DNA from: Escherichia coli
Lineage (GTDB): Bacteria > Pseudomonadota > Gammaproteobacteria > Enterobacterales > Enterobacteriaceae
Reading direction: 5' to 3' (one strand)
Length of the DNA stretch: 64,000 nt
NCBI RefSeq assembly: GCF_045037415.1
Contig: NZ_CP173440.1
Numbering within the stretch: position 1 is the stretch's first letter; every line of letters starts with the position of its first letter. The notes below the pieces were generated by a model, which saw only the letters and a program-made list of their open reading frames with translations, ran no database searches and was not told where the DNA came from. The position numbers and the translations under genes are program-made. Of the stretch, positions 18,222 through 20,492 are shown piece by piece.

Positions 18222-19198
18222 GACATCCCGCCCCCGATACTGTTGCGCTCCAGTATGGATGAGATAAACGCGCCGATTAAATAACGGTTTGCCTCTGCTC
18301 GCTTTGCAAAGGGTTGCAATCCCGGCGTTTCAGTGCACGCTGCGACGTCGGAACCTGAAGAATACAACCAGGATTCAAATGACGAATCAAAATGGTTAAA
18401 GATGATGCCATCCTCACATTCACAGCCATCAACCCGCTCTTTTTCCATGACAGGGAAAAAGCGTTCAAGCTCATCACGTAATGCTACGCTAAAATGGCCT
18501 GGACGGGCAGTATGTTCAAAGGTGTAGAGATACGCCTGCTGGCGAAGAATATCCTCGTGACAACAGAGCACACCGTGTCTGGCTGCGTTTTTCAGAAGCG
18601 CTTCATAATTAAGCAGTACTTTTCCTTCAACTGAAGGTTCGACCTCTGCCCCATTGGTAAAGCCGCGATTTGGGTTCTGTCCAGTACTGTTGAGCCGACA
18701 GCCAGCACTCAGGCCAGACAGGTTCACAAGCGGTAAAAAACTCACAGCTACGTTATCAAACAATTCAGGGGAGCCTTCGCGCAGAAAATCCAGCATCCCC
18801 CAGCATCCCGCGGGTTCTTCTCCATGAAACCCTGCCGCAATCAGAATATGCGGAACGTCAGCCCCCTGATTGACGGACTGATACAGCGATATGTTGCCCT
18901 CTCCAGGACACCCCAGAACAATTTCATACAGCCCCCATCGACTGGACTGTTCCCTGAATGCCTTTTCAAAAAAAGCAATATCGTTACTTTGGGTATCATC
19001 CTTCTTCACTGGCCAGATATGACAACGGTTCTCGCGCAGGGACGAACTGCCTCCATGTTGATTAATCAAGGCGCACCTCCGGCGGTCGGCAACACATCTC
19101 AATGCAGTCAGCTGCTTCGTTGAGTAATAGTGTTCCCATACATTTCCCCGTACGATCGCGTACGGTGACACGCGCCGCATTTTCCTCCGCATCGCCAA
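18218..19198 (-). CDS. succinylglutamate desuccinylase/aspartoacylase (AstE/AspA) family hydrolase; start uncertain
   Basis: LIAAGFHGEEPAG motif. The listed ORF overlaps the upstream gene by about 137 nt, so the true start is probably internal (for example GTG near 19009). Confidence 0.5.
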   Translation of the reverse strand: MAMRRKMRRVSPYAIVRGNVWEHYYSTKQLTALRCVADRRRCALINQHGGSSSLRENRCHIWPVKKDDTQSNDIAFFEKAFREQSSRWGLYEIVLGCPGEGNISLYQSVNQGADVPHILIAAGFHGEEPAGCWGMLDFLREGSPELFDNVAVSFLPLVNLSGLSAGCRLNSTGQNPNRGFTNGAEVEPSVEGKVLLNYEALLKNAARHGVLCCHEDILRQQAYLYTFEHTARPGHFSVALRDELERFFPVMEKERVDGCECEDGIIFNHFDSSFESWLYSSGSDVAACTETPGLQPFAKRAEANRYLIGAFISSILERNSIGGGMS

Positions 19199-20063
19199 TA
19201 ATCAGGAGGAAAGGAATGCGGGCCAGCGTCTGCTCCCGGATTTTGTATCCAATTTTTTCATTACGAAGATCGGTCTCACAGCGAAGTCCTTTCCGGCGAA
19301 GTGCCTTCAGAACCTGCTCCGCGTATCGATGTTGTTTATCAGTAATCGTCATGACCACGGCCTGAACCGGCGACAGCCAGGCGGGCAGTTTACCAGCGTA
19401 GTGTTCAAGAAGAATACCGGTAAAACGCTCAAGAGAGCCGAAGAGCGCCCTGTGTAACATCACCGGGCGTTTTGTCGAACCATCCTCGGCAATGTAGCCA
19501 ATATCGAATCGATCAGGCAGATTCATATCTACCTGTAGCGTCCCGCACTGCCAGTCACGACCGATCGCGTCGCGCAACACAAACTCCAGTTTAGGGCCAT
19601 AGAAAGCCCCTTCACCGGGATTTACCGACCATTGTAATCCCTGAGCTTCCAGAGAGGCTGAAAGCGCGTTTTCCAGCCGATCCCAGTCGGTGTCACTTCC
19701 CATGCGTTTTTCAGGACGGGTGGATAACTTGATTTCGACCTCTTCAAATCCAAACTGCTTATAAATATCAAGCACCAGATGAAGGATACTTTTACACTCC
19801 CCCTCAAGCTGTTCCAGCGTGCACGGGTCCAACGCTTCTTCGTCAAAAAGCGTGATGATATTGAGCGTGCCACTTTTCTGCACTGCCTCGATCAGATCGA
19901 TATATTGGCCATCGATTTCAGCATACACGGCGTTTTTCGCGACGGAAGAATCGATACTTTCCGCGACGTTCTGCAACGTGGTCCCTTTTCTGACGAGCTT
20001 CAGAGAGCCATCAGGAAGAGTAAAGGTGAGAGGTTCTGACTCTGTTATAAGCGCTTCTGACAT
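19062..20063 (-). CDS. shortened threonyl-tRNA-synthetase-like protein (TGS domain + C-terminal catalytic remnant + anticodon-binding domain)
   Basis: N-terminus MSEALITESEPLTFTLPDGS aligns to the ThrRS TGS domain; the middle aligns from the LSTRPEK / GEGAFYGPK / WQCGT region onward; C-terminus DLRNEKIGYKIRE is the anticodon-binding domain. The editing domain and class II motifs 1-2 are absent. Confidence 0.65.
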   Translation of the reverse strand: MSEALITESEPLTFTLPDGSLKLVRKGTTLQNVAESIDSSVAKNAVYAEIDGQYIDLIEAVQKSGTLNIITLFDEEALDPCTLEQLEGECKSILHLVLDIYKQFGFEEVEIKLSTRPEKRMGSDTDWDRLENALSASLEAQGLQWSVNPGEGAFYGPKLEFVLRDAIGRDWQCGTLQVDMNLPDRFDIGYIAEDGSTKRPVMLHRALFGSLERFTGILLEHYAGKLPAWLSPVQAVVMTITDKQHRYAEQVLKALRRKGLRCETDLRNEKIGYKIREQTLARIPFLLIIGDAEENAARVTVRDRTGKCMGTLLLNEAADCIEMCCRPPEVRLD

Positions 20064-20492
20064 TTTCGTATCCCGACATAGCTCAGTGATTAACAGCAAC
20101 TATGTTGCATTAACCCACAAATTAACGCAACCTTGTTGCATTAAAAGCGTCACTAGGGAGTGCCTGAATATGTTAAGGGAAAGCATGGAAATGTTATTAA
20201 ATGGTAAAGATAATCTTTGCCATTTAAATACGTCTCACGCTAAGGCATACAATTTACAGTATGATATAACGTATAACTGATAACTAATAACTAACTACGA
20301 TTCTGTCAGATGGAGAAAATGTTTCAACTTTTGCTCGCCTTGAGAACGGTGTTAAGCGCCATCGCAAAAGACTGAACATATCTGGATAGACATTATCAAA
20401 TGAAAAACAAAAGGTTACACACCCCCCTCCTGCCAGCGGAATGACAAAGAACATGGTGGGATAGCGAATACAGACGGAAGAGGTAATATAAA

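Follow-up and report, generated by a model that had tools for sequence, protein, structure and literature searches.

We show that thrS', which encodes a short protein resembling threonyl-tRNA synthetase (ThrRS), is very probably a recently generated remnant of the full-length paralog thrS2, left behind by a single in-frame deletion of 951 bp. The window, that is, the whole stretch of 64,000 nucleotides that we analyzed, is a pLVPK-type Klebsiella pneumoniae virulence plasmid, and thrS' belongs to the zinc-starvation island of Haas et al. 2009, who had already reported the pLVPK Zur cluster and the ThrRS paralogs of Zur regulons (PMC2770081). The island has the gene order cysS2-zur-COG0523-dksA2-folE2-cam-...-thrS2-M14-pyrC2-hemB2, and thrS' is the first gene in the tightly packed cluster at its end:

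19062..20063, minus strand: thrS', 333 codons plus stop, in-frame internal-deletion derivative of the island ThrRS2 paralog
18218..19069, minus strand: M14-family metallopeptidase-like gene, with a TTG start
16875..18221, minus strand: pyrC2, dihydroorotase paralog, above its NCBIfam cut-off and overlapping the M14 gene by 4 nt
15789..16811, minus strand: hemB2, porphobilinogen synthase paralog, last in the cluster

An 8-nt overlap (TTGATTAA) joins the TTG start of the M14 gene to the stop of thrS', and it recurs in the full-length locus of plasmid pBio30. When the paralogs of the cluster were scored against NCBIfam cut-offs, thrS' was the sole failure and all others tested passed. These include cysS2, which had been suspected of being a pseudogene in pLVPK from the lack of a PLSDB table entry, wrongly: its reading frame is intact and it passes the cysS cut-off.

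The open reading frame (19062..20099, minus strand) can be read as 345 aa from a TTG at 20099, the start annotated in RefSeq (WP_011154557.1), or as 333 aa from an ATG at 20063. The shorter product is the likelier one, because the full-length ortholog (MSEAPITE..) is annotated from a start that agrees with the ATG, and the TTG extension crosses the upstream operator palindromes. Relative to full-length thrS2, the gene consists of two parts and the point at which they meet:

19824..20063, minus strand: codons 1-80, the TGS (N1) domain and the first residues that follow it, matching roughly the first 70 residues of E. coli ThrRS
19823..19824, minus strand: deletion junction (..GAC CCG / TGC ACG..), placed by comparison with full-length thrS2
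19062..19823, minus strand: codons 81-333 and the stop codon, comprising the portion of the class II core beyond motif 2 and the anticodon-binding domain

Profile and structure-based comparisons agree on this composition. Pfam places TGS at residues 15-71 and HGTP_anticodon at 234-321 (E 6e-18), with the distal part alone of tRNA-synt_2b (model positions 71-179) at residues 81-222. A phmmer search against the PDB aligns residues 14-79 and 73-323 with residues 4-69 and 380-630 of housekeeping E. coli ThrRS (1QF6), both without gaps. The four peptides LSTRPEK, GEGAFYGPK, WQCGT and HRALFGS are all present in the product. The second part, equivalent to E. coli ThrRS 388-642, includes motif 3, whose region aligns to 1QF6, and the equivalent of His511, and the equivalent of residues 71-387 is absent. 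Missing are 317 residues, a length that is exact by comparison with the full-length ortholog, comprising the N2 editing domain, the linker and motifs 1 and 2; the absence of both motifs is also seen in the alignment to full-length orthologs. The first-pass annotation, which had described an in-frame ThrRS-like frame of 333-345 aa that keeps the TGS N-terminus, the distal catalytic core and the anticodon-binding domain and lacks about 300 residues covering the editing domain and motifs 1-2, was therefore accurate in each of these respects.

We take the catalytic zinc ligands of E. coli ThrRS (1QF6) to be Cys334, His385 and His511. The equivalents of the first two are deleted in thrS' and that of the third is kept within HRALFGS, so that the zinc site is incomplete. 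Against the NCBIfam thrS equivalog TIGR00418, the product reaches 296.5 bits where the curated cut-off demands 383.65, with a match confined to profile positions 319-562. Judged from its sequence, the product cannot be a synthetase, because the motif-1 dimer interface, the motif-2 site for ATP and the acceptor end, two zinc ligands and the N2 domain are gone; the earlier expectation that it would be unlikely to aminoacylate on its own is supported by the loss of motifs 1-2 and of the two ligands. AlphaFold2, run on the 333-aa product with a hand-trimmed alignment, returned a mean pLDDT of 71.8, with a native-like C-terminal part (pLDDT 80-95) and a TGS part below 50, the latter because the TGS alignment is shallow. 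This model says nothing on stability, since an alignment of full-length enzymes reproduces the native substructure regardless.

The parent gene is present in related islands. The syntenic island of pBio30 carries a full-length thrS2 of 650 aa, and thrS' equals this gene minus positions 8842-9792 of the pBio30 locus (L002), i.e. 951 nt or 317 codons, the deletion removing codons 81-397 in frame. Codons 1-80 are 87% identical in nucleotides to pBio30 thrS2, and the retained parts show 80% (N part) and 88% (C part) amino acid identity to full-length ThrRS2. The left breakpoint could be compared only with an 87%-identical relative, since the pLVPK-type 5' end was found in no full-length allele; no microhomology is evident at the junction against the available relatives. 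At 99% identity or more to pBio30, thrS2 is full-length in 33 of 5426 complete E. coli genomes, where it is mostly chromosomal, and a Pantoea-type contig also carries a full-length copy in the gene order of the island. The protein WP_021575194.1, carried by pBio30 of K. pneumoniae and by E. coli O55:H7 DEC5E, is this full-length ThrRS2. It retains every class II motif and each of the three zinc ligands, but its editing motifs are destroyed (HxxxH to RxxxL, DxCRGPH to DgFNGPL); it is accordingly predicted to be editing-dead. Between thrS2 alleles, dN/dS is 0.07-0.13, indicating long-term purifying selection on the full-length form, a value that is no guide to the short form because the divergence predates the deletion.

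The age of the deletion is constrained by plasmid pTK421_2, which is 99.74% identical to window positions 18287-19823 and reads 770 nt in frame past the pLVPK junction (..HFTQDDAHIF/CTLEQLEGE..). These extra nucleotides encode motifs 2 and 1, the zinc-ligand cysteine within KPMNCPG and a portion of N2. Because an allele this similar still has the deleted segment, the deletion is very recent. In the 762-nt 3' part of the gene, pLVPK and pTK421_2 differ at two positions, both derived in pTK421_2, leaving no substitutions on the pLVPK branch; hence no post-deletion dN/dS can be estimated for the short form. By these counts, the deletion is too young for sequence evolution to separate a neutral remnant from a newly useful protein.

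The distribution of the short form is equally narrow. A 1201-bp stretch containing thrS' occurs in about 590 independently assembled PLSDB plasmids at 99% identity or more, complete pLVPK among them, and the short form is limited to this near-clonal plasmid lineage; a search of 5.8 billion proteins found no other protein of this architecture outside the Klebsiella cluster. Within the pLVPK lineage, isolates carry further frameshifts, deletions and fusions in thrS' (variants P0002-P0008), and thrS2 has been truncated independently and differently in pTK421_2, which has also lost pyrC2 and other island genes, and in the FDAARGOS_775 plasmid. A split gene whose missing half is encoded elsewhere was considered and rejected, as the deleted segment had no tblastn match in the window and no DNA match on pLVPK-type plasmids. 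Two further candidates were set aside. A 2-kb metagenome contig (P0010/L008), in which an upstream region of pLVPK type (99.85%) is followed by a 3' part of pBio30 type (98.3%), may be an assembly chimera and is not counted as a third independent deletion, and CRKP-33 pVir, considered as a diverged carrier of the short form, has an identical thrS' next to a recombined pyrC2 and is uninformative on age. Any notion of the short form as a conserved type falls away, because its spread is restricted to pLVPK plasmids, pTK421_2 keeps the segment, and full-length orthologs are syntenic in pBio30 and E. coli chromosomes: the short form is a young, isolated deletion for which conserved orthologs are lacking. 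Two features of a remnant are thus present, a disabling lesion in a gene whose homolog is intact and confinement to one recent lineage.

The regulatory region of the cluster has been retained along with the truncated gene. The relevant elements in the window are:

20091..20144, no strand assigned: two tandem 10-3-10 palindromes, TTAATGCAAC-N3-GTTGCATTAA, presumed operator of the thrS' cluster
25669..26121, plus strand: island-encoded Fur-family repressor (Zur-like)
24332..24346, no strand assigned: canonical enterobacterial Zur box, upstream of dksA2-folE2-cam and not of thrS'

The palindrome pair sits 28-81 nt upstream of the ATG at 20063, and a matching copy lies at 25598-25620, in the divergent promoter region of the Fur-family repressor and the COG0523 GTPase gene. 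A search within 430 nt upstream of thrS' found no canonical Zur box, and the box at 24332..24346 is the site predicted for LV190 by Haas et al. (PMC2770081). The first-pass annotation had placed thrS' at the head of a probable Zur-controlled operon; its position as first gene of a packed zinc-starvation cluster stands, but palindromes take the place of the canonical Zur box. We infer that the cluster would respond to zinc through the presumed palindromic operators, and thrS' is probably still transcribed from its original promoter and made as the first cistron. We found no expression or functional data for the gene in the K. pneumoniae literature.

Together, these observations suggest a simple history. 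In the ancestor of the pLVPK lineage, one 951-bp deletion would have taken out codons 81-397 in frame, so that the residue following the motif-2 strand came to abut the TGS domain. The reading frame would have stayed intact since the deletion happened by chance to be in frame and since it is too young to have gathered substitutions. The open frame may also let ribosomes reach the overlapping starts of M14-pyrC2-hemB2, which would make the deletion non-polar. Two observations might be held against the reading as a remnant. The frame is intact in hundreds of sequenced plasmids, which carries little weight because these plasmids are near-clonal (at least 99% identity), and the breakpoints fall near domain boundaries, just after TGS and after the motif-2 strand. 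Such a tidy fusion of TGS, half-core and anticodon-binding domain could in principle fold partly and bind tRNA(Thr). Nevertheless, nothing in the sequence comparisons supports the gain of another selected function, and of the four roles proposed earlier that of a decaying paralog is retained, while the tRNA-binding, regulatory and hetero-oligomer roles drew no support from the same comparisons.

Other explanations differ in whether selection acted on the loss or on its product. One variant compatible with the remnant reading is that ThrRS2 is costly through Ser-tRNA(Thr), and that knock-outs were favored in Klebsiella; an in-frame knock-out would then survive as it preserves expression of M14-pyrC2-hemB2. 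This would fit the destroyed editing motifs and kept zinc ligands of full-length ThrRS2, the conserved stop/start overlap between thrS' and the M14 gene, the occurrence of at least two independent thrS2 truncations in K. pneumoniae plasmids, and the finding that an editing-impaired Zur-regulated ThrRS mischarges and is no substitute for the accurate enzyme (Rubio et al. 2015, PMC4787780). However, the 33 E. coli genomes and Klebsiella plasmids of the pBio30 type keep the gene whole at 99% identity or more, its alleles bear the mark of long-term purifying selection, two or three losses on decaying plasmids would also be expected if loss were neutral, and the absence of pyrC2 and other genes from pTK421_2 suggests general erosion of the island, so that we regard adaptive inactivation as unlikely. 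That the plasmids are misassembled or misannotated and the gene is truly full-length can practically be dismissed, given the same 1201-bp stretch in about 590 independent assemblies.

The remaining alternatives grant the short protein a function. The TGS and anticodon-binding domains might bind tRNA(Thr) or the tRNA-like operator of the chromosomal thrS mRNA and modulate translation or ThrRS synthesis under zinc starvation, for which one could cite a complete anticodon-binding domain that shares 88% identity with its counterpart in the full-length paralog, which looks active, together with the native-like AlphaFold2 model of the C-terminal part and the retained promoter-operator region. E. coli ThrRS uses its dimeric form and its catalytic core to bind the operator and to hold tRNA tightly, and the short protein has lost both. 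Moreover, the AlphaFold2 result is no evidence of stability, its alignment being drawn from full-length enzymes; the 99.74%-identical allele that still has the deleted segment leaves no time for selection; orthologs of the same architecture were not found elsewhere; and secondary disruptions are tolerated in the population. We therefore consider a neofunctionalized RNA-binding factor very improbable. A narrower form, in which the remnant is a zinc-starvation-induced decoy for tRNA(Thr) or for the chromosomal thrS mRNA operator, adjusting ThrRS synthesis or Thr-tRNA supply in hypervirulent K. pneumoniae once the zinc-dependent housekeeping enzyme fails, appears highly improbable. Finally, the short protein might pair with chromosomal ThrRS as a dominant-negative or zinc-sparing partner, by analogy with the T1/T2 enzymes of Anabaena, where Zur-regulated ThrRS paralogs can heterodimerize with the housekeeping enzyme (PMC4787780), the parent gene being of that general kind. 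We give this scarcely any credence: motif 1, the region through which class II enzymes dimerize, is gone, the induced Anabaena paralog gives catalysis and the housekeeping subunit editing, neither of which the short protein can give, and the recency of the deletion counts against this proposal as it does against the others.

Comparison with known systems places the remnant among them as a derivative. Full-length ThrRS2 (WP_021575194.1), a member of the Haas et al. 2009 class, is orthologous and syntenic to thrS' and has the upstream operators and M14-pyrC2-hemB2 in common with it, whereas thrS' is without 317 internal codons (N2, linker, motifs 1 and 2, two zinc ligands). That class consists of complete synthetases with conserved zinc ligands (PMC2770081), a description that does not apply to thrS', although its position and flanking genes are those of thrS2 in pBio30, pTK421_2 and the Pantoea-type contig. 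ThrRS T2 of Anabaena sp. PCC 7120 (Rubio et al. 2015, PMC4787780) is likewise a ThrRS duplicate tied to the zinc-limitation response, as is the parent of thrS', and editing capacity is compromised in both T2 and the full-length ThrRS2 of the island. T2, however, is a complete active synthetase with HxxxH and DxCRGPH that forms homo- and heterodimers, whereas thrS' has neither motif 1 nor motif 2, and thrS' is no specific relative of T2, since it is gammaproteobacterial and shares about 60% identity with ordinary proteobacterial ThrRS. We also compared thrS', from general knowledge, with other proteins that contain a subset of synthetase domains. HisZ, the free-standing editing and catalytic halves of ThrRS in Crenarchaeota, AlaX and YbaK are ancient families of complete folding units that are conserved across taxa, in contrast to thrS', which arose by deletion in a single lineage, retains half a catalytic core and has no same-architecture orthologs among the proteins searched.

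Our findings have consequences for annotation and for the biology of these plasmids. The RefSeq label 'threonine--tRNA ligase' and the aminoacylation GO term, now carried by hundreds of hypervirulent K. pneumoniae plasmids, need correcting. Were the remnant functional, for which we found no support here, it would offer a rare view of a new synthetase-derived protein soon after its origin, and as a decoy it would be a regulatory protein caught at birth from a synthetase. More broadly, the zinc-starvation island on pLVPK emerges as an eroded copy of a larger one. E. coli chromosomes and other plasmids harbor the fuller form, which encodes a metal ABC transporter in addition to full-length ThrRS2, and the erosion on pLVPK is relevant to studies of how the virulence plasmid contributes to zinc-limited growth.

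The short gene thrS' encodes a TGS domain joined to the distal part of the catalytic core and to an anticodon-binding domain. Its product has Pfam matches to TGS (15-71), tRNA-synt_2b (81-222, only model positions 71-179) and HGTP_anticodon (234-321). In phmmer alignment with E. coli ThrRS in the PDB, residues 14-79 pair with 4-69 and 73-323 with 380-630, and the score against the NCBIfam thrS equivalog, 296.5 bits, falls below the cut-off of 383.65. This score and coverage bear out the first-pass annotation, including its statement that the editing domain and motifs 1 and 2 are absent. 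RefSeq calls the identical 333-aa protein 'threonine--tRNA ligase', 'aminoacyl--tRNA ligase-related protein' or 'TGS domain-containing protein'. Under WP_011154557.1 (19062-20099), the first of these names and GO terms for threonyl-tRNA aminoacylation extend over hundreds of plasmids, a propagated misannotation, since the motifs are missing. The gene and its surroundings are as follows.

Features of the window around thrS' and its putative regulatory sites
18218-19069, minus strand, M14-like peptidase gene
19062-20099, minus strand, thrS' (345 aa from TTG 20099; 333 aa from ATG 20063)
20091-20113, 20122-20144, 25598-25620 and 63892-63914, copies of a 10-3-10 palindrome
21334-22263, minus strand, 288-aa protein
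24332-24346, canonical Zur box upstream of dksA2
25669-26121, Fur-family repressor
26170-27585, cysS2
27622-27636, 32395-32409, 36538-36552 and 57545-57559, canonical Zur-box matches

ATG 20063 is the likelier start, because it coincides with the point where the full-length ortholog is annotated to begin (MSEAPITE..), follows a weak GGGA Shine-Dalgarno sequence, and the TTG extension would cross two operator-like palindromes. The M14-like gene, pyrC2 and hemB2 follow consecutively; genes for a COG0523 GTPase, dksA2, folE2, a gamma-carbonic anhydrase and a QueD-like protein also lie around thrS', with a DUF1460 gene nearby on the opposite strand. The TTG start of the M14-like gene overlaps the thrS' stop (TTGATTAA). 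Among NCBIfam models it scores best against a Shewanella-type N-acetyl-ornithine deacetylase (295 bits, missing the cut-off of 400); possibly, it encodes a zinc-starvation paralog of an enzyme from the arginine pathway. The 21334-22263 protein matches the QueD/PTPS family only weakly; pLVPK labels it 'hypothetical protein' and pBio30 'isocitrate dehydrogenase', the second of which looks like a misannotation.

The 1.2-kb stretch with thrS' shows 100% identity to plasmid pLVPK of K. pneumoniae CG43 and matches about 590 PLSDB plasmids at 99% or more, nearly all Klebsiella virulence plasmids; at least some E. coli records carrying it are transconjugants of conjugation assays. The genes around thrS' are the Zur-regulated cluster of pLVPK described by Haas et al. 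2009 (PMC2770081), who placed ThrRS among nine zinc-enzyme families with Zur-regulon paralogs.

In K. pneumoniae plasmid pBio30 (L002), the island has a 650-aa thrS2 at the position matching thrS', and M14-pyrC2-hemB2 follow with an identical 8-nt stop/start overlap.

Aligned segments of the window and the pBio30 island (L002), with nucleotide identity
Window 26746-20596, L002 1-6151, 98.2%
Window 20147-19824, L002 8518-8841, 87.0%
Window 19823-15772, L002 9793-13841, 90.7%

Nothing in the window corresponds to the 951 nt (317 codons) at L002 8842-9792. The junction, CCG|TGC, falls at a codon boundary, with no microhomology evident against the relatives compared, and joins ..LNIIT(L/V)FDEEAL(D/G)P straight onto CTL(E/Q)Q(L/V)EGECKSIL.., so that residues 71-387 in E. 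coli numbering are lost. Over 15772-26746 the island is a mosaic relative to pBio30, with 98.2% identity between cysS2 and DUF1460 and no more than 87-91% between thrS' and hemB2. Where pBio30 has its metal ABC transporter genes (L002 6152-8517), the window has 448 unrelated bases (20148-20595).

Plasmid pTK421_2 (L004) bears on the age of the deletion. Up to the junction it agrees with window 18287-19823 at 99.74% (4 mismatches over 1537 nt), then continues for 770 nt absent from the window and 88-93% identical to pBio30 thrS2. This extra segment reads in frame as ..KPMNCPGAV..HGLLRVRHFTQDDAHIF|CTLEQLEGECKSILHLVLD... and spans motifs 2 and 1, the cysteine that serves as zinc ligand, and a portion of N2. 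The deletion is therefore younger than the pLVPK/pTK421_2 allele split. In the 762-nt thrS 3' part the two differ at two sites, both in the pBio30 state in the window, and thus the pLVPK branch shows 0 substitutions there since that split. A search of 5.8 billion proteins returned no second protein of this architecture; matches beyond the Klebsiella cluster are confined to the C-terminal 70-80%, with 57-69% identity, as for ordinary ThrRS. The short form is therefore an isolated recent deletion with no conserved orthologs, the very outcome that the first-pass annotation named as counting against its reading.

Of 5426 complete E. coli genomes, 33 have the parent gene, a full-length thrS2 at least 99% identical to the pBio30 allele, mostly on chromosomes, and full-length thrS2 is also found in a Pantoea-type contig and plasmid (order dksA2-folE2-cam-thrS2-pyrC2-hemB2). 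Comparison of the pLVPK/pTK421_2 alleles with that of pBio30 gives dN/dS values of 0.07 in the C part, 0.13 in the middle and 0.25 in TGS (dS 0.26-0.52), so the full-length gene has been under purifying selection. ThrRS2 of pBio30 (L002 8602-10554) keeps the three zinc ligands and has both editing motifs destroyed (HxxxH to RxxxL; DxCRGPH to DgFNGPL), which predicts an editing-dead synthetase. It resembles Anabaena T2 as an editing-compromised ThrRS of zinc limitation; T2, however, keeps HxxxH and DxCRGPH and owes its impairment to an insertion (PMC4787780). The island enzyme would be more degenerate than T2.

The first-pass annotation had thrS' as first gene of a probable Zur-controlled operon. 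It is the first cistron, but no canonical Zur box was found in the 430 nt upstream, and Haas et al. (PMC2770081) list no site for this cluster; sites that they did predict correspond to 24332-24346 and, for hisI2-yciC, 32395-32409. The other matches include one upstream of an oxidoreductase gene (27656). Distinct from the canonical box is the palindrome TTAATGCAAC-N3-GTTGCATTAA, with four copies in the window against 0 expected by chance: two lie upstream of thrS', 28-81 nt from the ATG, and 25598-25620 is in the divergent promoter region of the Fur-family repressor and COG0523 gene. It is kept at corresponding places in pBio30, pTK421_2, an FDAARGOS plasmid and the Pantoea-type contig (islands L001, L002, L004 and L006). 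The palindrome probably serves as operator for the island-encoded Zur-like repressor, and we infer that zinc would regulate the thrS' cluster through it. A second copy of the COG0523/operator segment 24357-25706 lies at 62651-64000 (also 60974-61605; 97.6% identity), with nearby pieces 92-97% identical to 30661-32187; this region is not collinear with pLVPK, and the plasmid therefore bears part of a second zinc-island copy.

Class II synthetases depend on motif 1 to form the dimer interface and on motifs 2 and 3 to bind ATP and the acceptor end; ThrRS further needs its zinc site for threonine selection (1QF6 structure). Of this machinery the thrS' product retains motif 3 and a single zinc ligand alone, alongside the anticodon-binding domain, and we therefore predict with high confidence that it cannot aminoacylate, strengthening the earlier view that it was unlikely to do so on its own. 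Structure prediction, also proposed there, gave an AF2 model that is native-like in the C-terminal part and of low confidence in the TGS part, and says nothing on stability. New roles for the product in RNA binding, which we regard as very improbable, or in hetero-oligomers, more improbable still, find no support in the evidence. Nor is this a split enzyme, since the deleted segment is encoded neither elsewhere in the window nor on pLVPK-type plasmids.

Instead, thrS' is very likely a non-functional remnant, probably still translated as first cistron. The decaying paralog among the earlier suggestions thus gains support from the recent in-frame deletion and from further lesions in the pLVPK lineage, where otherwise identical alleles show fusions to pyrC2 (P0002) or M14 (P0003, P0008), an internal deletion (P0004) or frameshifts (P0005-P0007). 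There are other signs of erosion: pTK421_2 has lost the first ~141 thrS2 codons along with upstream genes, and pyrC2 too; the FDAARGOS_775 plasmid keeps only a ~570-nt thrS2 fragment; and pLVPK lacks the metal ABC transporter genes found between DUF1460 and thrS2 in pBio30. A 2-kb metagenome contig (ENA k141_138947) joins a pLVPK-type upstream region (99.85%) to a pBio30-type thrS2 3' part (98.3%) near position 670, inside the operator; it represents a further independent deletion in thrS2 or else a chimeric assembly. A recent, in-frame deletion would explain why the thrS' frame is still open, and the open frame may also matter only for translational coupling to M14-pyrC2-hemB2. Compatible with the remnant reading, loss of an editing-dead ThrRS2 could have been advantageous in Klebsiella, which we think rather unlikely. 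The gene is a real feature but an ordinary remnant in a known island on a well-studied plasmid, and its practical value lies in an annotation correction and a clearer view of the erosion of the pLVPK zinc island.
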